Under the pieces are notes generated by a model. It made no database searches. It was not told the origin of the DNA and was given only the letters and a program-made list of their open reading frames with translations. Positions 12,202 to 27,257 of a stretch of 64,000 nucleotides of DNA are shown piece by piece. The stretch spans positions 1,899 to 65,898 of the forward strand of contig CAVXVP010000032.1 of NCBI GenBank assembly GCA_963765245.1, in the 5' to 3' direction. The translations under genes were made by a program, and so were the position numbers. This stretch comes from an uncultured Chloroflexia bacterium (GTDB lineage Bacteria > Chloroflexota > Limnocylindria > Limnocylindrales > CSP1-4). The stretch's first letter is position 1. Every line of letters begins with the position of its first letter.

Positions 12202-12558
12202 TTGACCGGCATCTGGTACGTCGTGGGGTTCGCCTTCGCCGGCGTGTCGTTCGTGTTCCTGACGATCGGCGCCGCGTGGCTGGTCTCGCACCGGAACCGC
12301 GGTGACGAGCACAAGGGCCTGCCCTACGAATCGGGGATCGACACGTTCGGCGACACCCACGGCCGGTTCGGACTGTCGTTCTACGTGTACGCCCTGCTGT
12401 TCGTCGCGTTCGACATCGAGGTGGTGTTCATCTACCTCTGGGCGATCGCCTTCGACAGCCTGCTGCTCGGCGGCCTGGTCAGCATGTTGATCTTCGTCGC
12501 GATCCTGCTCCTCGGCCTTGCCTACGCCTGGCGGAAGGGGGCCCTGACATGGCGGTGA
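12202..12558 (+). CDS. nuoA: NADH-quinone oxidoreductase subunit A
   Basis: TTG 12202 is preceded by GAAGGGAG. The 118-aa product has three TM segments and the motif [42 protein letters not shown]. Confidence 0.85.
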
Positions 12559-13286
12559 AGTCCACCACACGAGAGCCCGGCAAGGGCGGCGGCCGCGCGA
12601 CGACCTCGAGCATCCTGCCCGCCGTGACGGATGAGTCGACCGACCTGATCGTCCCGATCGTCGTCCCGAACATGCTCTGGAACGCGGCGGATCCGGAGGC
12701 CTACGACGGCGGCCGACCGACCGACATCGACCACCTCCGCGAGTTCGAGAACAGCGAGCTGATGCGCCGCGACGATGCGCGCTGGGGTGGCGTCCTCGAG
12801 GTCATCCCGACCCGCGCCGACTACGTCCTCGACCTGATCCGGATGAACAGCCTGTGGCCGCTCCTGTCCGGCCTCGCCTGCTGCGCCATCGAGATGATGT
12901 CAGCGGCGACATCGAAGAACGACATGGACCGCTTCGGCATGTTCCCGTTCCGCGCCAGCCCGCGCCAGGCCGACGTGCTCATCGTCGCCGGCACGCTGAC
13001 GACCAAGATGGCCGGCCCGCTGGTCCGCCTCTGGGAGCAGATGCCCGAGCCCAAGTGGTGCGTCGCGATGGGCGACTGCACCTGCTCGGGCGGCCGCTAC
13101 AAGCGCAGCTACTCGACGGTCGAGGGGATCGACCGGGTCATGCCGGTCGACGTCTACGTGCCCGGCTGCCCGCCCCGCCCCGAGGGCCTCATCTACGGGA
13201 TGATGAAGCTCCAGCAGCTGATCAAGGACCGGCGCGGCCACTGGCCCGAGCGGGCGATCGGCCCGACCGTGCCCGAGGACGTCTAG
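12549..13286 (+). CDS. nuoB: NADH-quinone oxidoreductase subunit B (with an N-terminal extension of roughly 90 aa)
   Basis: [17 protein letters not shown]...[31 protein letters not shown]...[15 protein letters not shown]...[13 protein letters not shown]. Intact ORF. Confidence 0.9.
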
Positions 13287-13288
13287 GC

Positions 13289-13837
13289 GTGGATCGCCAT
13301 TTCAAGGCGCGCCTCGAGGCCCGCTTCGCCGCGCAGCTGACCGGCCCGATCCGGCAGCGCCACGACGAGACCGAGATGCGGATCGCGCCCGGCGACGTGG
13401 TCCCGGTCATCACCGCGCTCCACGACGAGCCCGATCTCAACTTCCAGTTCCTGAGCGACCTTGCCGGCGTCGACACGGGCGTGGTCATGCAGGTCGTCTA
13501 CCACCTCTGGAGCGAGACGACACCGGACTGGCTGCGGGTCACCGCCGACGGCCTGTCACGCGACGACCCGCGCGTCCCCTCGGTCACCTTCCTGTGGAAG
13601 GGCGCGGAGTGGATGGAGCGCGAGGCCTACGACATGTTCGGGATCACCTTCGAGGGCAACCGCGACCTGCGCCGCATCTACATGCCGCCCGACTACCAGT
13701 CCTTCCCGCTGCGCAAGGACTTCTACCTGGCCGACGATGCCGCCCGCTCGCCCGGTGGCGGCGTCCGGCCGATGGAACGCACCGCATCCCCGACCAACGC
13801 CCCGGCGACGGCGCTCGTGCGCCGGTCGCCGGACTGA
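13289..13837 (+). CDS. nuoC: NADH-quinone oxidoreductase subunit C
   Basis: GTG start at 13289. LHDEPDLNFQFLSDLAGVD...VVYHLWS...TFLWKGAEWMEREAYDMFGITFEGNRDLRRIYMPPDYQSFPLRKDF. Confidence 0.8.
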   Translation: MDRHFKARLEARFAAQLTGPIRQRHDETEMRIAPGDVVPVITALHDEPDLNFQFLSDLAGVDTGVVMQVVYHLWSETTPDWLRVTADGLSRDDPRVPSVTFLWKGAEWMEREAYDMFGITFEGNRDLRRIYMPPDYQSFPLRKDFYLADDAARSPGGGVRPMERTASPTNAPATALVRRSPD

Positions 13838-13930: not shown

Positions 13931-15073
13931 GTGCCCGCGTACCCGCCGCGGACCGAGCGCGAGGCCGAGTTCTACACGCTCGGCGACGGCGAGATGTTCG
14001 TCAACATGGGGCCGCAGCACCCCTCGACCCACGGCGTCCTGCGGGTCGTCCTCAAGCTCGACGGCGAGAAGGTCGTCGACCTCGACCCGGTGCTCGGCTA
14101 TCTCCATCGCGGCGTCGAGAAGCTGTGCGAGAACGCCGACTACCACCAGGCGATCTGCTACACCGACCCGCTGGAGTACGTCAGCTCGCTGTTCAACGAG
14201 TGGGCGCCGGTGCTCGCCTTCGAGAAGCTGCTGGACGTCGAGGTGCCGCGGCGCGCCGAGTACATCCGGGTCCTCTCGTTGGAGCTGAACCGGGTCTCCA
14301 GCCACGCCCTCTTCATCGGCTGGATGGCGCTCGACCTGGGCGGCCTGACGCCGATCCTGTGGTCGTTCATCGAGCGTGACGAGATCGTCGACATGCTCGC
14401 GGCGCTGACCGGCCAGCGGATGCTCTTCAACTACTTCCGGATCGGTGGCGTCAACGGCGACCTGAACCACGAGTTCATGAGCCGCCTGGGCGACTGGATG
14501 TCGAAGGCGACCGAGCAGATCGAGTCGGGCAACGCCCTCCTCAACGAGAACGAGATCTTCGTCCGGCGGATGCGCGGCCTGGGGACGATCGACACCGCGA
14601 CCGCCCTGCGGATGGTGATGACCGGCCCGAACCTGCGCGCGACCGGCGTGCCGTTCGACATCCGCCGGGCGCATCCGTACAGCGTCTTCCCCGAGCTCGA
14701 GTTCGACATCCCGACCCGGACCGAGGGCGACTGCCTCGCCCGCTACCTGCTGCGCATCGACGAGATCAAGCAGAGCCTGCGGATCATCGACCAGTGCCTC
14801 CACAAGATGCCCGACGGTCCGGTGCTGGCCAAGCTGCCGCGGCTGCTGCGACCGCGCCCGGGCCGGGCCTACGCCGCGGTCGAGGGCCCGCGCGGCCAGT
14901 ACTCGATCTACGCCATCAGCGACGGCACCGACCAGCCGTTCCGGATGCGGATCCACGACCCGTCGTTCATCCACCTCCAGTCGGTCGGCCTGCTGATGCC
15001 GGGCCACCTGATCGCCGACACGATGGCGATCATGGCCAGCCTCGACCCGATCATGGGCGGCGTCGACAAGTGA
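13931..15073 (+). CDS. nuoD: NADH-quinone oxidoreductase subunit D
   Basis: Intact 380-aa ORF. MFVNMGPQHPSTHGVLRVVLKLDGE...LGYLHRGVEKL...RIGGV...EGPRGQYSIYAISDG...PFRMRIHDPSF. The start (GTG 13931) could be further upstream. Confidence 0.9.
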   Translation: MPAYPPRTEREAEFYTLGDGEMFVNMGPQHPSTHGVLRVVLKLDGEKVVDLDPVLGYLHRGVEKLCENADYHQAICYTDPLEYVSSLFNEWAPVLAFEKLLDVEVPRRAEYIRVLSLELNRVSSHALFIGWMALDLGGLTPILWSFIERDEIVDMLAALTGQRMLFNYFRIGGVNGDLNHEFMSRLGDWMSKATEQIESGNALLNENEIFVRRMRGLGTIDTATALRMVMTGPNLRATGVPFDIRRAHPYSVFPELEFDIPTRTEGDCLARYLLRIDEIKQSLRIIDQCLHKMPDGPVLAKLPRLLRPRPGRAYAAVEGPRGQYSIYAISDGTDQPFRMRIHDPSFIHLQSVGLLMPGHLIADTMAIMASLDPIMGGVDK

Positions 15074-16420
15074 CCGTCGTCGGGAAGAGCTGGAACCGGC
15101 TGACCCTCCCTGGGAAGGTCATCTTCACGGTCGTGCCGCTGCTGGTCGTGGTGACGGTCGTGGCCGTCGCGGCGATCGTGCTGCTCGGTCCGGCGATCGT
15201 CGACATCCTCGCCGCGAACCTGCCGATCCTGCGGTTCGTGATCGCGGTCACGGTCGTGCTCCTGATGACCGTCCCGACCGCCTTCCTGATCATCTACATG
15301 GAGATGAAGATCATCGCCCTGATGAACCTGCGGATCGGGCCCGACCGGGTCGGTCCGTGCGGCTCGCTGCAGTCGGTCGTCCACGGCCTCAAGGTCCTCA
15401 TGAAGGAGGACTTCACCCCGACCGGCGCCGACCCGATCGTCTTCACCTGGGCGCCGGTCGTACCTACCTGGCCAGCGTCATGACCCTGCTGGTCATCCCG
15501 TTCGCGCCCGGGCATCTTCGGCCAGGACCTCAACATCGGGCTGCTCTACTTCTTCGCGATCGGCGGCCTGTCGGTCGTCGGGCTGCTGATGGCCGGCTGG
15601 TCGAGCTACAACAAGTACTCGCTCCTCGGCGGCCTGCGCGCCGCGGCCCAGGTCATCAGCTACGAGATCCCGCTGACGCTGTCGGTCGTCGGGCTGATCC
15701 TGCTGGCCGGGCACGATGAGCCTCAACCAGATCGTGCTCAACCAGAGCGGCTGGTTCACCAACTGGTACGTCTTCCGGCAGCCGCTGGCGGTCCTGATCT
15801 TCTTCATCGCCGCGACGGCCGAGGCGAACCGGACGCCGTTCGACCTGACCGAGGCCGACTCGGAGATCGTCGCCGGCTTCGCGACCGAGTACTCCGGGAT
15901 GCGCTTCGGGTTCTTCTTCTTCGCCGAGTACGTCAACGTGTTCATCATCTCGGCGCTGACGGTGACGCTCTTCTTCGGCGGCTGGAACGCGCCGTTCCCG
16001 TGGCCGTGGCCGGTCGACATCGCCTTCAACCCGGGCAGCCTCGGCATCGGGATGCTGCTCGGCGTGGCGATCATCCCGGTCGTCCTGACGCTCCTCTTCG
16101 CGGCGCCGATCTGGCTGGCGAGCTCGCGGATCAAGGGCTGGCAGGCGCTCATCGGCGGCTTCGTCCTCGCCAACCTGTTCATCGTCGCGGTCGTCGGCGC
16201 GTGGGCCTACATCGGGCTCGACTGGGTCGCCGGGCTGCTCTGGTTCCTGCTCAAGACGTACACGTTCGTGTTCATCTTCGTGTGGATGCGCGGCACGCTG
16301 CCCCGCGTGCGCATCGACCAGCTGATGGACTTCGCCTGGAAGTGGATGCTGCCCGCGTCGCTGCTCAACCTGTTCCTGACCGCCGCCGCCATCGTCGTCG
16401 TCAAGACCGTGAGGCCCTGA
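15070..16420 (+). CDS. nuoH: NADH-quinone oxidoreductase subunit H (three frame breaks near 15462, 15510, 15710)
   Basis: GTG 15070 overlaps the nuoD stop. [26 protein letters not shown]...[16 protein letters not shown]..., then [17 protein letters not shown], then [31 protein letters not shown], then [46 protein letters not shown]...[25 protein letters not shown]. Two of the breaks are an extra G in a ccGGGc context. Confidence 0.85.
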
Positions 16421-17101
16421 TGAGCCTCGTCCCGGGCCTGGGCATCGTCAAGGGGATGGGGCTGACCCTCCGCCGCTTCTTCGAGCCCAAGGTCACCATC
16501 AAGTACCCGGAGGAGAAGCGCCCCGCTCCCGCACAAGTTCCGCGGCCGGCTCCAGCTGCTCTACGACGAGTGGGGCACGATCAAGTGCGAGACCTGCTTC
16601 CAGTGCGCCCAGGCCTGCCCGATCGAGTGCATCGACATGGGCGGCATCGACACGCGCGGCCGCTACCACGTCCACTGGGGCGCGCCCGAGACGTACGGCG
16701 AGCGCCGCGAGGAATCGGCGCTGCGGCGGTCCGGCCGTCCGGTCCCGGACCCCGCGTACGTGCCGTTCGCCGCGGTCGACCTGCGCGAGCTCGACAGGAT
16801 CCTCGACGACTTCGACCACGACCCGGCGGAGATGCTGCCGATCCTCGAGGCGACCCAGACCGCCTATGGCTACCTGCCGGTCGCGGCCCTCAAGCGGATC
16901 AGCCAGCGGACCGGCGCCTGGTACGCGTCGATCTATGGCACGGCCACGTTCTACAGCCACCTCCGGTTCGAGCCGCCCGCCTTGCGCGAGCAGGCCGCCG
17001 CCGTCGACAGCCATCGGCCGCCCGAGGCGACCTACCTGACCGCCCTCGACGCATCGCTGGCGGGCGCGCGCAAGCCGGCCCGCAGGCAGGCGCAGGCGTG
17101 A
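16420..17101 (+). CDS. NuoI-like N-terminal half (one CxxCxxCxxxCP motif) fused to a cysteine-free NuoE-like helical domain (one frame break near 16520)
   Basis: ATG 16420 overlaps the nuoH stop. [61 protein letters not shown] is NuoI-like. It then continues as [53 protein letters not shown], which is NuoE N-domain-like. No second ferredoxin motif is present and the last 154 aa contain no Cys at all. Confidence 0.6.
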
Positions 17102-17105
17102 CCCG

Positions 17106-18431
17106 ATGGTGAACCGCCTCAAGACACCCAAGGGCTGGCCGGCGATCCTGCTCGAGCGGGCCGGCGCCGCGGATCCGACCGACCTCGACGCGGCGGTGCG
17201 GGCCGGCGCGTTCGACGGCCTGCGACGCGTCGTCCGCAACTACGGGGCGACCGCGACGATCGCCACGATCGCGTCGTCCGGGTTGCGCGGCCGGGGCGGT
17301 GCCGGCTTCCCGGCCGCGGCCAAGTGGCGGCTGGCGGCCGGAACGCAGGCGCCGCGCCGCTACGTCGTGGTCAACGGCTACGGCGCGGACCCGGCGACCC
17401 GCACGGACGAATTCCTCCTCGAGAGCGACCCGTTCGCTGTCATCGAGGGCGCGGCGATCGCCGCGTTCGCCATCGGCGCGGGCGAGGTCATCATCGCGGT
17501 CCGCTCGGATGCCACGACCGCGATCGCGCGCCTCGGGTCGGCCATCGGCTCCGCCACCGAGGCGGGCTTCATCGGCTTCGACATCCTCGGCTCGGCGATG
17601 GACATCACGGTCACGGTCCGGCCGGTCCAGGGCGCCTACATGCTCGGCGAGGAGACCGTCCTGCTCAAGGCCCTCGCGGGCAAGCGCGGCCAGCCCGAGC
17701 AGCGGCCGCCGCACCCGGCCGAGAGCGGCCTGGACGGCATGCCGACCCTCGTCCACAACGTCCAGACCCTCGCCGCCGTCCCGTGGATCATCCGCAACGG
17801 CGCCGCGGCCTTCGCCCAGATCGGCAGCCCGGACAGCCCGGGCACGATCCTGGTCCAGGTCCGGACGCCCTCCGGCGACGGCATCGCGGAGGTCCCGCTC
17901 GGGACGCCGCTGCGCGAGGTCATCGGGCTTGGCGGGCGATTGCCTGCCAGCCGCTCGATCAAGGCCGTCCTGGTCGGCGGCCCGTCCGGTGGCCTGTTGC
18001 CGCCCGAGATGCTCGACACGCCGTACGACTTCGACGCGTTGCGTGCCGCGGGCGCGCACATCGGCTCGGGCTCGGTGGTCGTCGCCGACGATCGCGCCTG
18101 CGTCGTCGATCTCGCGCGGCTGCTGACCCGGTTCTGCGCCGGCGAGGCATGCGGCAAGACGATCCCGTGCCGGATCGGGACGCGCCGGCTGGTCGAGATC
18201 GCCGATCGCGTCGTCGAGGGCCGGCCAAGACCGACAGACATGACGCTGCTCGAGGACCTGTCGGCCGATATCGTGGCGTCCGCCCTGTGCGACCACGAGC
18301 GGCTGACGACCCTCCCGCTGTCCAGCGGGATGCGATACTTCCGGTCCGAGCTGGACGAGCACATCCTGCACAGTGCCTGCCCTGCCGGTGTCTGCCATCC
18401 GATCGCGGTGGCGGCCGGTGCGACCCGATAA
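17106..18431 (+). CDS. nuoF: NuoF-like NADH dehydrogenase flavoprotein subunit (divergent)
   Basis: Intact 441-aa [72 protein letters not shown], and a cluster region [12 protein letters not shown]...ALCDHE. Confidence 0.8.
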
Positions 18432-18439
18432 GGCGACCC

Positions 18440-21052
18440 ATGGCTGACCTGATCACGCGCCCCGACAGCCGCCTCGCGACCGAGCGGGAGGCACCTGCCG
18501 AATCGCTGCCCGAGCGCCTCATCGAGACGCAGTCGCCGCAGCGGCCGCAGGTCTCGCCGCGCATCCGGATCGAGGTCGACGGGCGGGTCGTCGAGGGCTT
18601 CGAGGGCCAGACGATCCTCGAGGTCTGCCGCGACAACGGGATCGAGATCCCGACCCTCTGCTACGAGCCGAAGCTCCCCGGCTTCGGGGCGTGCCGGATG
18701 TGCGTCGTCGAGGTCGAGGGCGAGGAGCACCCGCCGATCTCCTGCTCGCGCACGTGCGAGCCGGAGATGAAGGTCCAGACCCAGACCGAGGAGCTGCGCC
18801 GGCTGCGCCGGACGAACCTCGAGCTGATCTTCTCCGACCACAACGCCTACTGCCTGCCGCCGTGCCAGAACAAGTGCCCCAGCCACATCGACATCCCGGG
18901 CTTCCTCAAGGCCAACGCGGAGACGGACTGGCGCGAGAGCACGCGCATCTTCAAGCGCACGATCCCGTTCCCCAGCGTGCTCGGGCGGGTCTGCCCGGCG
19001 CCGTGCGAGGAGCACTGCCGGCGCGACGAGGTCGACGAGGCGATCGCCATCCGCGACAGCCACCGCTACGCCGGCGACCAGGTCCTCAAGGCGATGCTCG
19101 ACGAGGGCGAGGACCCGCCGATCCCGTTCGAGCGCCAGGCGCCGTCCGGCCGGCGCGCCGCGGTCATCGGCTCCGGGCCGGCCGGGATGGCCGCCGCGTT
19201 CTACCTGCTCCTCGCGGGTCACGACGTGACCGTCTTCGAGCGCGACCCGTCGCCCGGCGGCATGCTCCGCTACGGGATCCCGCAGTACCGCCTGCCCAAG
19301 GTCGAGGTCCTCGAAGCCGAATACGAGTCGATCACCCGGCTCGGCGGCAAGATCGTCTGCAACGCCGGTCTCGGCGTCGACTTCACGCTCGACGACCTGA
19401 CCTACCAGGGCTTCGATTCGGTCGTCGTCGCGATCGGCTGCTACGACACCAACAAGCTCGGCATCCCGGGCGAGGACGCCGCCGAGGTCCTCGACGGCCT
19501 CGAGTACCTGCGCACGGCGACGCTCGGCCTGCCGTACCCCGGTCACGCCGGCAAGCGGGTCGTGGTCATCGGCGGCGGCTTCACCTCGATGGACTGCTCG
19601 CGGACGTCGATCCGCCAGGGCGCCAAGGAAGTGACGCTCGTCTATCGCCGCGACATGAAGGACATGCCGGCCGCGAACGAGGTCCACGAGGCGATCGAGG
19701 AAGGCGTCACCGCGATCTTCCAGGCCGGACCGGTCCGGGTCGTCACCGACAAGAAGGGCAACGTCACCGGCGTCGAGTTCATCCGGATGGCGCCGGGCGC
19801 ACCGGACGCGTCGGGCAGGCGCCGCCCGGAACCGGCGCCCGGCACGGAATTCACGATCCCCTGCGACCGCGTGCTGCTGGCCATCGGCCAGGGCCCGGAC
19901 CTGACCTGGATCGGACCGGGGTCGGACGGGGTCGAGGCGACCAAGCAGAACCGGCTCAAGGCCGACGCCGTGACGTTCGAGACCGGCCGACCCGGCGTGT
20001 TCGGGACGGGCGACGTGCGGATCGGCGCGGCGACCGTGGTCGCGGCCGTCGCCGAGGGACGCCGCGCGGCCTACGCGGTCGATGCCTTCCTCAAGGGCAT
20101 GGACCTGACCGCGATCCGGACCCGCCAGACGCTGGCCGAGCCGCAGCCCGAGTTCCTGTCGATCGTGCCGTTCACCAGCGAGGCCAAGACGCCGCGCTAC
20201 CGGATGACCGCCCTCCACGCCGAGCAGCGCAACGACTCGTACATCGAGTACGAGCTGCCCTACACGCGCGAGGACGCCGTCGCCGAATCGACGCGCTGCC
20301 TGCAGTGCACCTGCGAGGCGATCGGCTTCTGCGACCTGCGCCGGCTCGGCATCGAGTACGGCACGACGCTGCCCACGCTCGAGCCGGAGAACCACCAGGG
20401 CGCCGGCTTCCGGAGCGTGACCGAGAACCGCTTCACCGGCGTCAACCACGACTACATCCGGGACGACTCGCACGCCTTCATCCTGCGCGAGCCGTCGCGC
20501 TGCATCGACTGCGGCCGGTGCGCCAACGTCTGCGCCGAGGTGGTCGGCGCCGCCTGCTACGACTTCATGCGGATCGGCTTCGATACGCTGGTCACGACAC
20601 CGTTGGACATGAGCCTCAACGACACGCCGTGCGTGTCGTGCGGACGCTGCGCCGAGACGTGTCCGACCGGGGCCCTGATGCCCAAGCCGCGCGTCCTCCA
20701 GAAGTACGAGGTCGACGAGAGCCGCTGCATCCTGTGCGGGATCTGCGTCGATGCCTGCCCCTACGACGCCCTGCGCGACGGCGCGGACATCGAGCTGTCG
20801 CACACGAGCCGCGACGAGCCGATGATCGACCTGATGGCGATCGCGGCGATCGACCGCGAGACCGAGGTGACCTACATCCGCCGCGAGCGCGACTGGGCGA
20901 CCCGCGCCGCGGCCGACGGACGGCTGATCGACACGTCGCGGATGCTGCCGATGCTGCCGCCGACCGTCACCGGCATCCCAGACAACGGACACGCGCACGG
21001 CAACGGCCATGGCCACGGCGGGACGGCCGTCGTCCCGACACACCACGAGTAG
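18440..21052 (+). CDS. 870-aa iron-sulfur flavoprotein in the NuoG position: NuoG-type 2Fe-2S N-domain + GltD-like FAD/NAD(P)H oxidoreductase + ferredoxin-type 4Fe-4S motifs + NuoI-like C-terminal half
   Basis: Intact ORF, ATG 18440. It reads in order:
- [51 protein letters not shown]...ISCSRTC
- [19 protein letters not shown]...[12 protein letters not shown]
- [47 protein letters not shown]
- [16 protein letters not shown]
- [23 protein letters not shown]
- [12 protein letters not shown]...[16 protein letters not shown]
- [24 protein letters not shown]
- a His-rich tail [12 protein letters not shown]. Confidence 0.75.
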
Positions 21053-21061
21053 GCCGACGAC

Positions 21062-21655
21062 GTGATGCGTCGCCTGATCCCGATCCTCCTGGCCGTGACG
21101 TTGCTGGGCATCGTCACCGGCATCGCCGTGATCATGCTGCTGTTCCTCGGCCAGGACTGGGGCGATGCCCTGTTCTGGCTGTTCGCGGCGGTGATGATCG
21201 GTTCGGCGTTCCTGGTCGTGACGATGCGCGACATCATCCGCTGCGGGCTGGCGATGATCGTCTGCTTCGGGTCGCTGGCCGGGATCTACGCGATCATCGG
21301 GGCGCCGCTGCTGGCCGCCGCGCAGGTCATCGTCTACATCGGGGCGATCAGCGTCCTGATCCTGTTCGCGATCATGCTGACCCAGACCAAGGACGCTCCG
21401 AGCCGGCTGGTCTTCCAGACGCAGGCGGTCCCCGCGGCGATCGCCTCGATCGTCATCGCGGTGGTCCTCGCCCTGGCGATCGGCGCGACCGATTGGGGCG
21501 AGGCGGCCAAGCGCGTGCGGCTGACCGCCGAGGCGATGTCGAGCGTGCTGTTCAACAGCTTCGTGCTGCCGTTCGAGATCGTCAGCGTGCTGCTGCTCGC
21601 GGCCGTCATCGGTGGCGTCTACCTCGCCAAGCGCGAACCGGGCGGGCCGTCGTGA
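21062..21655 (+). CDS. nuoJ: NADH-quinone oxidoreductase subunit J
   Basis: Intact 197-aa polytopic [25 protein letters not shown]...[22 protein letters not shown]. The start is GTG 21062 or ATG 21065. Confidence 0.85.
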
Positions 21656-21990
21656 GCGACTCGCTCGACGCCTACCTGGTCCTGTCCGGGCTTCTCTTCG
21701 CGATCGGCACGTTCGGGTTCCTCGCCCGGCGCAACGCGATCAGCATGCTGATGTCGATCGAGCTGATGCTCAACGGGGTCAACCTCGCGATCGTCGCGTT
21801 CGGGTCGTTCGGGACCGCTGCGGCCGCGGCCGCCGACCGGGCAGCGTCCGTGGCGGAGGGCTCGGTCATCGCACTGATGGTCATGGCCGTCGCGGCCGCC
21901 GAGGCGACGGTCGGGCTGGCCATCGTCATCGCCATCTACCGCAACAAGAAGACACCGCTGGTCGACGAATACGACGCTATGCGCCAATGA
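21652..21990 (+). CDS. nuoK: NADH-quinone oxidoreductase subunit K
   Basis: GTG 21652 overlaps the nuoJ stop. [42 protein letters not shown]...[21 protein letters not shown]. Confidence 0.85.
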
Positions 21991-22141
21991 GCGTCATGGA
22001 ACCGCCTTGCGCGCCGTCGGGACGAGCCGAGGGCAAGGCGCACCCGAGCATGCGAGCGAGCGCACCTCAAGGTGCGTGAGCGAACACGCGCAGGGTGCAA
22101 CGCGGCCATCGGCCGTCCGACGGCGCGCCTGATGACCGCCA

Positions 22142-24116
22142 ATGAACCCTGAGGCGCTGATCCCGGCGCTCGTGGTATTGCCGATGCTGGGGTTCCTGGT
22201 GACGGCGGTCGTCGGGCGCCGGCTCGGGAAGCAGGCGCACTGGGTGCCGGTGATCGCGATCTTCGCGGTCTGGGTCGCCGCGATGATGCTCGTCGTCAAC
22301 GTGCTGAGCGGCGCCGCGCCGCTGCTGCCGGGCTCCGAGGACTCGCACGGCTACGTCGTCGACTGGTTCACCTGGATCCCGGCCGACAACTTCGTGGTCA
22401 ACGTCGGCTTCGTCGTCGACGCGCTGACGGCAAGCCTGCTGATCGTGGTGACGACGATCGGCCTGCTCGTCCACGTCTACTCGATCGGCTACATGAGCCA
22501 CGACCCGGGGTACTGGCGCTTCTTCGCCTACCTCAACCTGTTCATGTTCTCGATGCTGCTGCTGGTCCTCGCCGGCAACTTCCTGGTCGTGTTCGTGGCA
22601 TGGGAGCTGGTCGGCCTGTGCAGCTATCTGCTGATCGGCTTCTGGTACCGCAAGCGCTCGGCGGCCCTCGCGGCCAAGAAGGCGTTCATCGTCAACCGGG
22701 TCGGCGACGTCGGTTTCATCCTCGGGATCATGCTGATCTTCGTCAGCCTCGGCACGCTCGACATCCGCGAGGTCATCGCGCGGATCGGCGAGCTCGATGC
22801 CGACGACGATCACGCTCATCGCCCTGCTGGTCTTCGCCGGCGCGATGGGCAAGAGCGCCCAGTTCCCGCTGCACGTCTGGCTCCCCGACGCCATGGAAGG
22901 CCCGACACCGGTCTCCGCCCTCATCCACGCCGCGACGATGGTCAACGCCGGCGTCTACCTCGTCGCCCGGACCAATCCGATCTTCGCCTACGCACCGTCG
23001 GCGCTCGTGGTGGTCGCCGCGATCGGCATCTTCACGGCCATCCTCGCCGCGTCGATCGCCATGACCCAGACCGACATCAAGCGCGTCCTCGCCTATTCGA
23101 CCCTCAGCCAGCTCGGCTACATGTTCGCCGCGCTCGGCGTCGGGGCGTGGACCGCGGCGATCTTCCACCTGATGACTCACGGCTTCTTCAAGGGCCTGCT
23201 CTTCCTCGGTTCGGGCTCGGTCATCCACTCGGTCCACGAGGAACAGGACATGCGCCGGATGGGCGGCCTGGCGGAGAAGATCCCGATCACCTACGTGACG
23301 ATGCTCATCGGCTCGCTGGCCATCGCCGGGATCCCGCCGCTCGCCGGCTTCTTCTCGAAGGACGAGATCCTGGGCAAATCGCTCAAGCTCGGGTTCGCCT
23401 GGGTCTGGCTGATCGGCTTCATCGTGGCCGGCCTGACCGCGTTCTACATGTTCCGGTTGATGGGCCTGACGTTCTGGGGCTCGTTCCGCGGTCCGCGCGA
23501 GATCTGGGACAAGATCCACGAGTCGCCGCCGATCATGACCATCCCGCTGATCCTGCTGGCGATCCCGTCCGTCTTCCTCGGGATGTACCTCGGCCTGCCG
23601 CTCGGAGACAGCCGGATCACCCACTGGCTCGAACCGATCTTCGCCGAAGGCGAGGCCGTCCTCCATGGCGGGGCCGCGGAGCCCGCCTACCAGCTGTTCG
23701 GCATCGATGGCGTGCTGATCATCGCCAGCGTCACGATCGCCACGATCGGGATGATCCTCGCCTGGCGGCTCTTCGGCGTCCAGCTCGGTCCCATCCGCAT
23801 GCCGTCCCGACCGGAGCGCGTCCGCGAGCTGACGGCGCGTGCGCCGTTCCTTTATCGCGCCTCGCTCAACAAGTGGTGGTTCGACGACCTGTACCACCTG
23901 CTGTTCATGGTCATCGGCGGGCGGATCGCGGCGGCCATCTGGTGGTTCGACCGTGAGGTCATCGATGGCACCGTCAATGCCATCGGGACCGGGACCATCG
24001 ACGCCGGCCGCGGGCTGCGCCAGGTCCAGACCGGTCGGGTCCAGAACTACGCCCTGGGCATCGCCATCGGCCTGATCGTGATGGCCGGGTCGTACCTGCT
24101 GCTTGCGGGCCGCTGA
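22142..24116 (+). CDS. nuoL: NADH-quinone oxidoreductase subunit L (one frame break near 22795)
   Basis: ATG start at 22142. [42 protein letters not shown], then in another frame [43 protein letters not shown]...[16 protein letters not shown]...[18 protein letters not shown]. Confidence 0.85.
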
Positions 24117-24118
24117 CG

Positions 24119-25767
24119 ATGACAGTCGACAGCATCCCGCTCCTGACGATCATCATCTTCCTGCCCCTCCTCGGCGCGCTGGCGGTCGCCATCGCGCCGG
24201 CCACGGCGGCACGACCGCTCGCGCTCGGGTTCGCACTCGCGACGTGGGTCGTCTCGCTCTTCATGCTCATCGGCTACCTGCCGCGGCCCGGCTTCCAGTT
24301 CGTCGAGACGGTCGACTGGATCCCGATCTTCGGCATCCAGTACAAGCTCGGCGCCGACGGGCTGGCGGTCGCCCTGGTGGTCCTGACCACGACCCTGTCG
24401 TGGATCTCGATCCTTGCCAGCTTCAAGCCGATCCAGACGCGGATCAAGGAATACATGATCTCGTTCCTCATCCTCGAGGTCGGCCTGATCGGCGTCTTTC
24501 TCGCGCTCGACACGTTCCTGTTCTACATCTTCTGGGAGATCGTCCTCGTCCCGATGTACCTCATCATCGGGATCTGGGGTGGCGCGAACCGGATCTACGC
24601 CACGATCAAGTTCGTCCTGTACACGCTCGTCGGGTCGCTGCTCATGCTCGTGGCGATCCTGGCGACCGCCTACGCGTACGCGGCTGGCCACGACGGCTCG
24701 TGGGTCGGTGCCTTCGACTTCGAGGTCCTGCGCGCGTATGCCGGGACCGGTGGGTTCGCCGACGGCCTACAGCTCCTCGCCTTCGTGGCGTTCTTCCTGG
24801 CGTTCGCCATCAAGGTCCCGATGTTCCCGTTCCACACCTGGTTGCCCGACGCGCACACGGAGGCACCGACGGCGGGCTCGGTGATGCTGGCGGCGATCAT
24901 GCTCAAGCTCGGCGCCTACGGGTTCATCCGGTTCGCGGTCCCGCTCTATCCGATCGGCGGCCGAGACCTTCGCGCCGGTGATCATCGTGCTGTCGCTGAT
25001 CGCGATCATCTACGGCGCGATCGTGGCCCTCGTCCAGCCCGACCTGAAGCGGCTCGTCGCCTACTCCTCGGTCAGCCACATGGGCTTCGTGACGCTCGGC
25101 ATCTTCGTGTTCACGGAGCAGGGCCTCCAGGGCGCGATCCTGCAGATGATCAACCACGGTCTGATCACTGGCGCGCTCTTCCTGCTGTGTCGGCATCATC
25201 TATGAACGGACTCACGACCGGACCATCGCCAAGATGGGCGGGCTGGCGGCGCGGACCCCGGTCTGGGCCGCGCTCTTCGGCTTCTTCGTCTTCGCCTCGG
25301 CAGGTCTGCCGGGGCTGTCCGGGTTCGTCGGCGAGTTCCTGGTGCTGCTCGGGACGTTCCAGGCAAACCCGTACGCGGCCGCGGTCGCCACGTTCGTGAT
25401 GATCCTGGCCGCCGGCTACCTGCTGTACATGTACGGGCGGGTCGTGTTCGGCGAGGTCTCCGACTTCCTGGCCGGACTCGGGGACCACCTGACCGATATG
25501 ACCCCGGTCGAGATCCTGACCCTGGCACCGCTCGGCGCGCTGGTCGTCATCTTCGGCCTTCAGCCTGGCCTGCTGCTCGACCTCGTCAACGGAACGGTCA
25601 GCGAGACCCTCCGCTCGGTCCAGCCGTCGGCACCGATCGCCATCCCGACCACGATCGTGGTCGGCCTCCTGGCGATCCTGGCCGTGCTCGTCCTGGCTCG
25701 CATCGCCTACGTGCTGATCCGGCAGAGCCGCGGCTCGCTCGAACCCGAGACCGGGGTCGCCCATTGA
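24119..25767 (+). CDS. nuoM: NADH-quinone oxidoreductase subunit M (two frame breaks near 24955 and 25187)
   Basis: ATG start at 24119. [21 protein letters not shown]...[45 protein letters not shown], then [28 protein letters not shown]...[14 protein letters not shown], then [19 protein letters not shown]...[14 protein letters not shown] in the other frames. Confidence 0.85.
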
Positions 25768-27257
25768 GCTGGCAGGACTTCGTCACGATCAGCCCGCTGG
25801 TGGCGGGCATCCTGACAGCGGCCGCGATCCTCGTCGTCGACCTGGTCCGCCCGGGACGGGCGGCGGTCGCAGTCGGCGTCTCGCTCACCGGCCTCGTGAT
25901 CACGGCCATCCTGGCGATGATCGTGGGGGCGGGGGCCACGCCGGTCACGGCGTTCGGGGGCGCGTACAAGGTCGATGACCTGACCACCTTCCTCGATCTG
26001 TTGTTCGTGGCGGCCATCGCACTGACCATCGCCTTCGGTCCCGACTACCTGATCCCGCGCGGCCTGCCGGTCGCCGAGTTCGCCGCGATCCTCGTCTTCG
26101 CGATGACCGGCGCGATGCTGATCTCGGCATCGGGCGACCTGTTGATGCTGTTCCTCGGGCTCGAGCTGATGGTCCTGCCCGGCTACCTGCTGGCCGCCTT
26201 TCACAAGTCCGACGCCTATTCCACCGAAGGCGCGATCAAGTACTTCCTGCTGGGCTCGTTCAGTTCGGCGATCTTCCTCTTCGGCATCGCCTTCATCTGG
26301 GGCCTGACCGGCACGACGAAGCTCGACGCGATCAACGAGACCCTGGCCGCGATCGTGGCCGGCACCGCACCGCTGTCACCTGGATTGGCGATGGGCCTCG
26401 CGTTCCTGACCACCGGCGTGGCGTTCAAGATCGCGGCGGTGCCGTTCCACTACTGGACGCCGGACGCGTACCAGGGCTCGCCGACGCCGATCACCGGCTA
26501 TCTCTCGGTCGTGCCGAAGGTCGGTGCCTTCGCGCTGATCCTGCGACTGTTCGTCGAGGGTCTCGGGCCGCTGGCCGACTGGTGGATGCCGGTGATGATC
26601 GTGCTGGCGACCGCGACGATGACCCTCGGCAACCTGGTGGCGCTGACCCAGGACAACGTCAAGCGGATGCTCGCCTACAGCTCGATCGCGCACACCGGCT
26701 ACATGCTGGTGGGCCTGGCAGCGTGGGCGGGCGACCCGCAGGACCGGCTGGACGGCATCGATGCCCTGCTGTTCTACGCGGTCGCCTACGCCTTCATGAA
26801 CCTGGGTGCCTTCGCCGTCATCGCCGCGCTCCAGAAACGCTCCGGGGTCACCTCCAGCCTCGGGACGTTCGCGGGCTTGGGCCGTCGCGAGCCGCTGCTG
26901 GGCATCCTGATGACGCTCTTCCTGCTGTCGCTGATCGGCATCCCGCCGACGGCCGGCTTCTTTGCCAAGGCGAACATCATCCTGGCCGCGGTCGAGGCGG
27001 GCGGGCCGCTGACGATCCTGGCAGTCATCACGGTGCTCAACGCCGCGGTCGCCGCGTTCTACTACCTGCGGGTCGTCGTCTACATGTTCATGCGCGAGCC
27101 GGCGAGCGACGCCCCGGCGCTCCGCCACGGCGCGCTGATGTGGGCGGGGCTGGCGGCCGCGTCCGCACTGACGATCCTGCTGGGCCTGTTCCCGACCGGG
27201 CTGCTCGATGCGGCCGGGCGGGCCGCCGAAGCGCTCGTCCCGGCTCTCCCCAACTAG
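25764..27257 (+). CDS. nuoN: NADH-quinone oxidoreductase subunit N
   Basis: Intact 497-aa ORF. TTG 25764 overlaps the nuoM stop. GLELMVLPGYLLAAF...KYFLLGSFSSAIFLFG...AFKIAAVPFHYWTPDAYQGSPTPITGYLSVVPK...KRMLAYSSIAHTGYMLVG. Confidence 0.9.
   Translation: MSWQDFVTISPLVAGILTAAAILVVDLVRPGRAAVAVGVSLTGLVITAILAMIVGAGATPVTAFGGAYKVDDLTTFLDLLFVAAIALTIAFGPDYLIPRGLPVAEFAAILVFAMTGAMLISASGDLLMLFLGLELMVLPGYLLAAFHKSDAYSTEGAIKYFLLGSFSSAIFLFGIAFIWGLTGTTKLDAINETLAAIVAGTAPLSPGLAMGLAFLTTGVAFKIAAVPFHYWTPDAYQGSPTPITGYLSVVPKVGAFALILRLFVEGLGPLADWWMPVMIVLATATMTLGNLVALTQDNVKRMLAYSSIAHTGYMLVGLAAWAGDPQDRLDGIDALLFYAVAYAFMNLGAFAVIAALQKRSGVTSSLGTFAGLGRREPLLGILMTLFLLSLIGIPPTAGFFAKANIILAAVEAGGPLTILAVITVLNAAVAAFYYLRVVVYMFMREPASDAPALRHGALMWAGLAAASALTILLGLFPTGLLDAAGRAAEALVPALPN

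Follow-up and report, generated by a model that had tools for sequence, protein, structure and literature searches.

A 64,000-nucleotide (nt) stretch of contig CAVXVP010000032.1 (GCA_963765245.1), called the window here, derives from a soil Chloroflexota genome of a lineage group referred to as Limnocylindria-type and carries a complex I (nuo) operon. Coordinates are window positions, (+) strand. The gene order is nuoA-B-C-D-H-[I_N-E_N]-F-[NfnA-I_C]-J-K-L-M-N, where I_N and I_C denote the N- and C-terminal halves of NuoI, E_N the N-terminal helical domain of a NuoE/NfnC-like protein, and F a NuoF-like gene. The Q-module and membrane-arm genes (A, B, C, D, H, J, K, L, M and N) all lie in this one cluster, and no separate nuoI or nuoG is present inside the operon. 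The slot of nuoG, between the NuoF-like gene and nuoJ, is filled by an intact open reading frame (ORF) of 870 amino acids (aa) without a stop, as a preliminary description of the sequence had noted. The operon does not follow the canonical order E-F-G-H-I, as nuoH lies upstream of the input genes, a point that the description did not mention.

Domains were called by Pfam and NCBIfam profile searches of the window ORFs, and homology to solved proteins by searches against PDB sequences. Within the 870-aa protein, Pfam recognizes Fer2_4 (aa 41-116), Fer4_20 (138-217), Pyr_redox_2 (240-540) and Fer4/Fer4_7 (731-779), together with a weak Fer4_Nqo3 match at aa 681-746, a segment that NCBIfam FeFe-hydrogenase and HoxU models also match. 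The preliminary description had anticipated these domains, with Fer4_Nqo3 now covering its dicluster segment; it gave their order correctly, and every motif that it quoted is present in the translation of 18440-21052. The molybdopterin-like domain is absent, as it had also stated (no PF00384, PF04879 or PF01568 in the Pfam search). The top NCBIfam model is PRK12814, of the [2Fe-2S]+GltD family, which covers aa 42-700 and scores below its cutoff. An ordinary NuoG was considered and rejected, as only the first ~98 positions of the NuoG model TIGR01973 are matched (positions 1-98, 89 bits against a cutoff of 470) and the molybdopterin domain is missing.

Among solved relatives, a single unbroken alignment links residues 42-773 with residues 4-699 of the 1178-residue NfnA of Caldicellulosiruptor saccharolyticus (9bov_A, E 8e-159), and the same region matches Sporomusa ovata StnC (8oh5_C, 3e-138) and an archaeal NfnA (9n5u_A). 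This contiguous alignment displaces the earlier view of an ad hoc fusion of a NuoG N-domain, a GltD unit and a polyferredoxin. By homology, the protein is an orthodox NfnA/StnC-type BfuA subunit truncated before the formate dehydrogenase (Fdh)-like domain, not a novel patchwork. An architecture of this kind, with a GltD/NfnL-like unit for flavin adenine dinucleotide (FAD) and NADPH integrated in a NuoG/HydA-like N-terminal region and the signature HxxxCxxxCxxxCP + CxxCxC..C, has been described (PMC7483475). The alignment to 9bov_A ends at residue 699, and the C-terminal Fdh/NuoG-like domain with cluster A5 is absent: the 870-aa protein stops ~100 aa past A4, and the sequence [24 protein letters not shown]...IELS replaces A5 and NfnA's Fdh-like domain.

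Conservation was assessed in 79 species, the best relatives of Limnocylindria-type. Every Cys that matches an NfnA cluster ligand (A1, A6/A7, the A3 motif and the eight Cys of the A2/A4 dicluster) is invariant in 79/79. The FAD fold GSGPAG and the NADPH-type fold GGGFTSMD...VYRR are likewise present in 79/79 species, so that the GltD-like unit proposed earlier retains both sets of motifs, and column identity across the flavoprotein unit is 0.86-0.99. Ligands of clusters A6/A7 are provided by H134-x3-C-x3-C-x3-CP (to C146P) and C185-x3-C-x3-C193. The C620-C631 motif, which the preliminary description did not mention, is also invariant in all 79; by homology, it belongs to the A3-type cluster that takes up electrons from the flavoprotein unit, and the motif has been described for StnC (PMC7483475). 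The non-Cys ligand of A7 differs, as Lys170 of C. saccharolyticus NfnA aligns with His208 (19061-19063), a residue that is His in all 79 Limnocylindria-type proteins and at the equivalent position in 49 of 50 proteins from Thermoleophilia (Actinomycetota). In the published accounts, this ligand is Lys in both Caldicellulosiruptor and Sporomusa NfnA, and changing the Sporomusa Lys to Arg or to Cys lowered activity by ~50% or 100%, respectively. Judged from the alignments, His at the A7 position is a derived trait that the complex-I-linked forms have in common, and His208 may retune the first cluster after FAD. A separate feature of the protein is its Gly/His-rich tail ([12 protein letters not shown]...HHE), which is poorly conserved, occurs in most Limnocylindria-type orthologues and is lacking in Thermoleophilia; it may bind metal or serve as a flexible tail.

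NuoI is a core complex I subunit that carries clusters N6a and N6b. In this operon its content is complete but divided: the N-terminal segment and motif 1 reside in a 225-aa protein, and motif 2 and the region following it reside in the 870-aa protein. The gene for the smaller protein, I_N-E_N, is frameshifted in the window and is recognizable on either side of the shift, with NCBIfam NuoI models matching its N-terminus. An intact 225-aa orthologue lies directly after nuoH in reference locus L001 (8029-8703), a contig of 3.13 Mb that has this operon as well. Its residues 9-83 correspond to the N-terminal half of NuoI (residues ~6-88 of E. coli, T. thermophilus, mycobacterial and mitochondrial structures), including the NuoI-specific segment (aa 9-50) that leads up to the first motif and a single CxxCxxCxxxCP. 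The only PDB sequence matched by residues 117-185 is that of NfnC, over its N-terminal helical domain (9bov_C residues 19-87). The 70 intact orthologues share five invariant Cys and no others, and these five lie within the NuoI part; in none of the 70 are the [2Fe-2S] Cys of NuoE/NfnC (cluster C1) found; the NuoE/NfnC [2Fe-2S] domain is therefore absent.

The other half, I_C, matches positions 71-115 of the NCBIfam NuoI model TIGR01971. When I_N (aa 1-87) and I_C are joined in silico, a single stretch (9-138) aligns to NuoI/TYKY with an E value of 6.5e-20 and 74.6 bits, compared with 38.6 bits for I_N by itself, and the joined alignment extends into the NuoI-specific region past the second motif. 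This gain bears out the suggestion in the preliminary description that the C-terminal motif of the 870-aa protein is the second half of NuoI. The protein contains three Cys motifs (M1-M3). Because M1 and M2 form the A2/A4 pair, M3, with its four Cys, has only the single I_N motif as a partner. The Cys count fits two clusters, N6a and N6b, that would be built between two polypeptides.

The neighboring NuoF-like protein (441 aa) has its best PDB match in NfnB (9bov_B residues 104-526 of 584, E 7e-105), and true complex-I NuoF chains all score below NfnB/BfuB, the best of them at 1.5e-78. It lacks the N-terminal (thioredoxin-like) domain of BfuB and the ferredoxin-type C-terminal 2x[4Fe-4S] domains (B2-B5), with a length of 429-456 aa in the 71 species used to assess its motifs. 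The [10 protein letters not shown] loop, Lys73, GEET and the GSGS loop are retained. The preliminary description called the upstream neighbor nuoF; the best matches of the NuoF-like protein and of the NuoE-like piece are of Nfn/Bfu type rather than complex-I type, and both are assigned to that type by homology.

The 11-subunit type of complex I has the gene order ABCDHIJKLMN (PMC3144371). The operon in the window reads as this order with a three-gene Nfn cassette placed inside nuoI, between its two CxxCxxCxxxCP motifs. An insertion within nuoI would fuse the first NuoI half to the front of the NfnC-like piece and append the other half to the end of the NfnA-like protein, which is the arrangement observed.

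Relatives were surveyed in GTDB contigs, with one genome per species. At least 560 species-level stretches encode a relative of the 870-aa protein; the best 80, all Limnocylindria-type, are 84-96% identical over the full length and come from both short-read and long-read assemblies. In a collection of 5.8 billion proteins, which gave at least 8000 candidate matches, the 120 best are 860-890 aa long (two are longer) and 84-93% identical, and the named ones are 'FAD-dependent oxidoreductase' proteins of Chloroflexota / Candidatus Limnocylindrales. Public labels for input-module proteins also include 'formate dehydrogenase major subunit', 'ferredoxin' and 'NAD(P)H-dependent oxidoreductase subunit E'. 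Across the 80 Limnocylindria-type genomes (the best of at least 560), every locus of adequate length has the order H-[I_N-E_N]-F-fusion-J-K, as does L001.

The same arrangement occurs in Thermoleophilia at 30-50% identity, in at least 178 genomic stretches. Among 76 Thermoleophilia loci (L082-L157), the operon order is identical and complete in 47, and most of the others are cut by contig ends. Linkage of homologues to nuo genes, raised as a question by the preliminary description, was thus found always in the loci examined, in two phyla. The Thermoleophilia proteins are more complete. I_N is fused to an entire NuoE/NfnC (BfuC) with four [2Fe-2S] Cys for C1, and the F subunit, with a median of 638 aa, has a four-Cys domain at its N-terminal end and a pair of CxxCxxCxxxC motifs at its C-terminal end and is thus a full BfuB (for example, at L083:6460-11681, where the F-subunit motifs are canonical). 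On the simplest reading, a complete NfnABC was spliced into NuoI, and the window lineage carries a trimmed descendant of it.

More distant relatives were sought in a 50%-identity representative library. Beyond the close relatives, full-length matches are 36-46% identical, and nearly all of them are NfnA types of 1000-1270 aa; among the 150 best representatives, a NuoI half at the C-terminus is found only in Limnocylindria fragments and in P0253 (816 aa, Thermoleophilia). The other hits of 810-850 aa are NfnA/Fdh-type proteins truncated at ...DHCARL. P0250, P0270, P0274, P0314, P0349 and P0360, NfnA-like representatives of 812-853 aa, all end in ...NN(I/V)DHCARL and have no NuoI half. Formate-dehydrogenase-type enzymes carry selenocysteine (TGA) near the position of this DHCARL end. 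The six are probably gene calls truncated at the selenocysteine codon, which would imply NfnL-Fdh fusions with a real catalytic Fdh domain.

The homology of the input genes to NfnABC, the invariant cluster ligands and flavin motifs, the complementary NuoI halves, the strict synteny and a normal N2 site in NuoB are direct observations. The best overall explanation, favored with moderate confidence, is that a module of NfnABC/StnABC type (Bfu family) serves as the electron-input arm of complex I. In NfnABC, electrons follow the path FAD-A7-A6-A3-A2-A1-B1-FMN (flavin mononucleotide), with a side branch A2-A4-A5 into a pterin-less Fdh-like domain that has been called probably non-functional (PMC11829005). 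In the complex proposed here, the two NuoI halves would meet across two polypeptides to form N6a/N6b, and the NuoI domain would occupy the place of the Fdh-like lobe of NfnA. This placement is consistent with the published position of the NfnC N-domain, between the Fdh-like lobe and NfnB. The A2-to-A4 branch, a dead end in soluble NfnABC, would then continue through N6a/N6b to N2 (NuoB) and quinone.

Two entry routes are predicted. Electrons from NADH would pass from the FMN of the NuoF-like subunit to B1, A1 and A2, and those from NADPH would pass from the FAD of the GltD-like unit to A7, A6, A3 and A2, so that the routes would converge at A2. The same wire could let NADH and NADPH exchange electrons, and both transhydrogenase action and kinetic gating are conceivable. 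If A3 is the counterpart of N5, an assignment made here, the input arm would dock unlike known complex I, reaching NuoI via the A4 position rather than N5, as the flavoprotein unit fills the A3/N5 side. As to function, an NADH- and NADPH-quinone oxidoreductase that pumps protons and joins NADH to NADPH by an internal wire is most likely.

A broader evolutionary proposal is possible but tentative. An ancestral 11-subunit complex I may have undergone a second, independent recruitment of an NAD(P)H-oxidizing module, in which a whole NfnABC was spliced into NuoI and the dead-end A4 branch became a quinone wire. In this scenario, the Thermoleophilia enzyme would pump protons and handle four substrates (NADH, NADPH, ferredoxin and quinone), the Limnocylindria enzyme would be a trimmed dual NADH/NADPH dehydrogenase, N6a/N6b would lie at a two-polypeptide interface, and the docking geometry would be unlike that of any solved complex I.

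Several observations weigh against an Nfn-type input arm wired in this way. Invariant or near-invariant changes affect the FMN/NADH site of the NuoF-like protein: NADEGEPG has become NGYGADP, and PPFP has become PPHP, replacing the adenine-stacking Phe with His. Its cluster motif is C344-x4-C349-x2-(T/S)-x2-C355...C395 in place of CxxCxxC...C, so that the middle Cys is Thr or Ser and an extra invariant Cys lies five residues upstream. Given the altered motifs, NADH use by this subunit is not certain; the site is under selection, but its sequence does not reveal which nucleotide it prefers. Taken by itself, I_C gives similar scores with the generic ferredoxin model FdxA_fam of NCBIfam (7e-16) and with NuoI (2.9e-16). 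An AlphaFold2 model of the 870-aa protein had a mean predicted local distance difference test (pLDDT) score of 32.9 and was discarded; the low score arises because the homologues in the 41-sequence alignment are all 85-92% identical. Finally, the NADPH-type motif is present in 39 of 50 Thermoleophilia proteins and degenerate in the other 11 (for example, GDGFAATE...LLSASAP for GxGxxD...YRR), and a complex of this kind can evidently exist without that site.

This last finding favors an alternative in which the GltD-like unit is a structural relic and the complex a plain NADH:quinone oxidoreductase with an odd scaffold. The 11 proteins have lost GxGxxD/YRR with everything else kept, and relic domains are well known in NuoG and NfnA. 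In all 79 species of the window lineage, however, the FAD and NADPH-type folds, the ligands of A6/A7 and the A3 motif do not vary, and the high column identity of the unit argues for a working site; a relic is considered unlikely. A genuine electron-bifurcating or confurcating complex I, coupling NADH, NADPH (and/or ferredoxin) and quinone, would accord with descent of the module from a bifurcating enzyme family (PMC11829005, PMC9304861), with the complete BfuC and ~638-aa BfuB of the Thermoleophilia relatives and with the confurcating 'Nuo-Bfu' complex I predicted in other phyla (PMC9304861). As published, however, the minimal bifurcation site is B1-FMN-C1, and non-bifurcating homologues are recognized by their lack of B2-B5 (PMC9304861, PMC11829005). 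The NuoE-like piece of the window lineage lacks the [2Fe-2S] Cys in 70/70 and the short F subunit lacks the BfuB end domains; with neither C1 nor B2-B5, no ferredoxin site and no flavin-based bifurcation are expected. The bifurcation-like input suggested in the preliminary description is thus sustained as to ancestry and probably not as to function in this lineage. Bifurcation there is unlikely, and a bifurcating complex I as the general explanation is decidedly improbable, although Thermoleophilia forms, which keep C1 and the BfuB end domains, may still use ferredoxin.

A soluble Nfn-like transhydrogenase or NAD(P)H oxidoreductase might instead be merely co-transcribed with an 11-subunit complex I, its ferredoxin-like ends being extra clusters rather than NuoI. 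The similar scores of I_C against generic dicluster ferredoxin models are compatible with this, as is the ability of Pfam Fer4_7 to read M2+M3 as one ordinary dicluster domain. That reading of M2+M3 was rejected as the primary one, as M1+M2 align to the structurally defined A2/A4 and are thus already paired in solved NfnA. A soluble enzyme would also leave the operon with no NuoI. Moreover, I_N has the NuoI-specific segment before its first motif, the I_C alignment runs into the NuoI-specific region past the second, and the halves occupy the place of nuoI, after nuoH and before nuoJ, in two phyla. Mere co-transcription is therefore rated as very unlikely. The possibility that the ORF is an artefact or a chimeric join from long-read assembly with many errors, for which the several frameshifted genes in the window might speak, deserves practically no weight. 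Thousands of independently assembled proteins and at least 560 species-level genomes, short-read ones among them, show this architecture over its full length, and the identical operon order across relatives refutes it; the earlier judgment that this is a real gene stands.

The closest solved relatives of all three input genes are thus NfnABC/StnABC (Sporomusa-type Nfn; 9bov, 8oh5, 9n5u). The 870-aa protein shares with NfnA/StnC the [2Fe-2S] N-domain, the integrated NfnL/GltD-like unit, both signature motifs and the A2/A4 dicluster, and F and E_N correspond to the NfnB core and the NfnC N-domain, respectively. It differs in that half of NuoI replaces the Fdh-like domain and A5, the C1 domain of NfnC and the B2-B5 end domains of NfnB are deleted in the window lineage, and the A7 Lys ligand is His. 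Unlike the soluble NfnABC tetramer, the complex is predicted from its genes to be membrane-bound via complex I. The 'Nuo-Bfu' enzyme (Schut et al. 2022, PMC9304861) is a predicted 14-subunit complex I with a BfuABC input, reported for Deferribacteres, Proteobacteria, Planctomycetes and Nitrospirae, and similarly has a Bfu-type NADH module with input genes in the middle of the nuo cluster. Unlike the window operon, it is made up of 14 separate subunits (A-N), includes a full BfuBC core and has no reported GltD/NfnL unit, split NuoI or H-before-E order.

With canonical complex I (NuoE/F/G/I; T. thermophilus 2fug/4hea), the complex shares the [2Fe-2S] N-domain of NuoG and one dicluster-type domain, an FMN subunit that bears a single [4Fe-4S], the motifs of NuoI and, downstream, N2 in NuoB. 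In contrast, it has neither a molybdopterin-like domain nor N1a, contains a second flavin unit and distributes NuoI over two polypeptides. The 11-subunit enzymes (cyanobacterial NDH-1 and Fpo with FpoF; PMC3144371) share the backbone nuoABCDH-I-JKLMN with a lineage-specific input module, but the module here is covalently fused to both NuoI halves and NfnABC-derived. No description of a nuo-linked NfnA-type subunit or of a split NuoI was found in the literature searched, in agreement with the preliminary description, and further papers may exist.

Complex I ranks with the most thoroughly studied energy-converting enzymes, and its 14 core subunits and electron wire are treated as essentially invariant. 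In the operon described here, NuoI, one of these core subunits, is divided, and both of its parts are joined to a foreign input module with a second, NADPH-specific flavin. If the halves assemble as proposed, complex I can evolve in modular fashion through insertions into a subunit that binds clusters. For NfnA, the A2-A4 branch, in structural work a probable evolutionary remnant, would gain a physiological role, and the enzyme would be a natural NADPH-linked proton pump that ties the anabolic NADPH pool directly to respiration. The operon occurs in hundreds of species of two almost uncultured lineages that are abundant in soil and freshwater, so that any effect on NADH/NADPH balance or respiratory yield would be ecologically widespread. 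The full Thermoleophilia form and the trimmed Limnocylindria form also constitute a natural pair for asking which parts of the Bfu core bifurcation needs.

Features of the nuo operon and of its input-module proteins (window positions).
Feature	Position	Strand	Basis and remarks
NfnA-I_C	18440..21052	+	Uninterrupted 870-aa ORF; NfnA/StnC-type subunit by homology, ending in the C-terminal NuoI half, truncated before the Fdh-like domain
[2Fe-2S] domain, aa 41-116	18560..18787	+	Pfam Fer2_4; corresponds to cluster A1 (NfnA) and N1b (NuoG); ligands C74, C85, C88, C102
NfnL/GltD-like flavoprotein unit, aa 134-555	18839..20104	+	Pfam Fer4_20 and Pyr_redox_2; alignment to 9bov_A and 8oh5_C
Motif C-x2-C-x-C-x5-C, aa 620-631	20297..20332	+	A3-type cluster by homology; aligned to 9bov_A
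HydA/NuoG-type dicluster domain, aa 681-746	20480..20677	+	C688..C698 and C731..C741; corresponds to A2 and A4 of NfnA; Pfam Fer4_Nqo3
I_C, aa 750-830	20687..20929	+	KYEVDESRC763[10 protein letters not shown]773PYDAL...IELS, then a conserved lineage-specific extension
Gly/His-rich tail, aa 848-870	20981..21049	+	Translation; column identity ~0.6
I_N-E_N	16420..17101	+	NuoI N-half (one CxxCxxCxxxCP) fused to E_N; frameshift near 16525-16535
NuoF-like gene	17106..18431	+	Core of NfnB/BfuB; Pfam Complex1_51K and NADH_4Fe-4S; FMN site and one [4Fe-4S]
nuoA	12202..12558	+	Pfam Oxidored_q4; tblastn, 80% identity to L001 nuoA
nuoB	12549..13286	+	Pfam Oxidored_q6; normal N2 motifs (CCxxE, C, CPP)
nuoC	13289..13837	+	tblastn, 81% identity to L001 nuoC (Complex1_30kDa)
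nuoD	13931..15073 (5' limit approximate)	+	Pfam Complex1_49kDa, E 6e-85
nuoH	15070..16414	+	Pfam NADHdh in three pieces of ORF; two tblastn segments (frames 1 and 2); one frameshift near 15710
nuoJ	21062..21655	+	Pfam Oxidored_q3
nuoK	21652..21990	+	tblastn, 80% identity to L001 nuoK (Oxidored_q2)
nuoL	22142..24116	+	Pfam Proton_antipo_N/M on two ORF pieces; tblastn; one frameshift near 22795
nuoM	24119..25767	+	Pfam; three tblastn segments in different frames; two frameshifts
nuoN	25764..27257	+	Pfam Proton_antipo_M; tblastn

Many genes of the window are frame-broken, as the preliminary description had remarked. The affected genes (nuoH, I_N-E_N, nuoL and nuoM) were traced by tblastn with L001 proteins. 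Because the shift in I_N-E_N sits in a C run and the closest relatives are long-read soil metagenome-assembled genomes, the single-base frameshifts are likely to be homopolymer errors of long-read assembly, not marks of pseudogenes. The nuoD gene of L001 (5415-6686) also carries one frameshift.

Three minor features concern the remaining nuo genes. NuoB (12549-13286) has an N-terminal extension of ~80 aa before its conserved core. In the second nuoH piece (15716-16420), 223 residues span just 142 Pfam model positions, corresponding to an insertion of ~80 aa; NuoH of L001 is 449 aa long. The NuoB extension and the NuoH insertion may provide lineage-specific contacts for the unusual input arm. 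A gap of ~150 nt separates nuoK from nuoL (21990-22142), whereas most other nuo genes abut or overlap.

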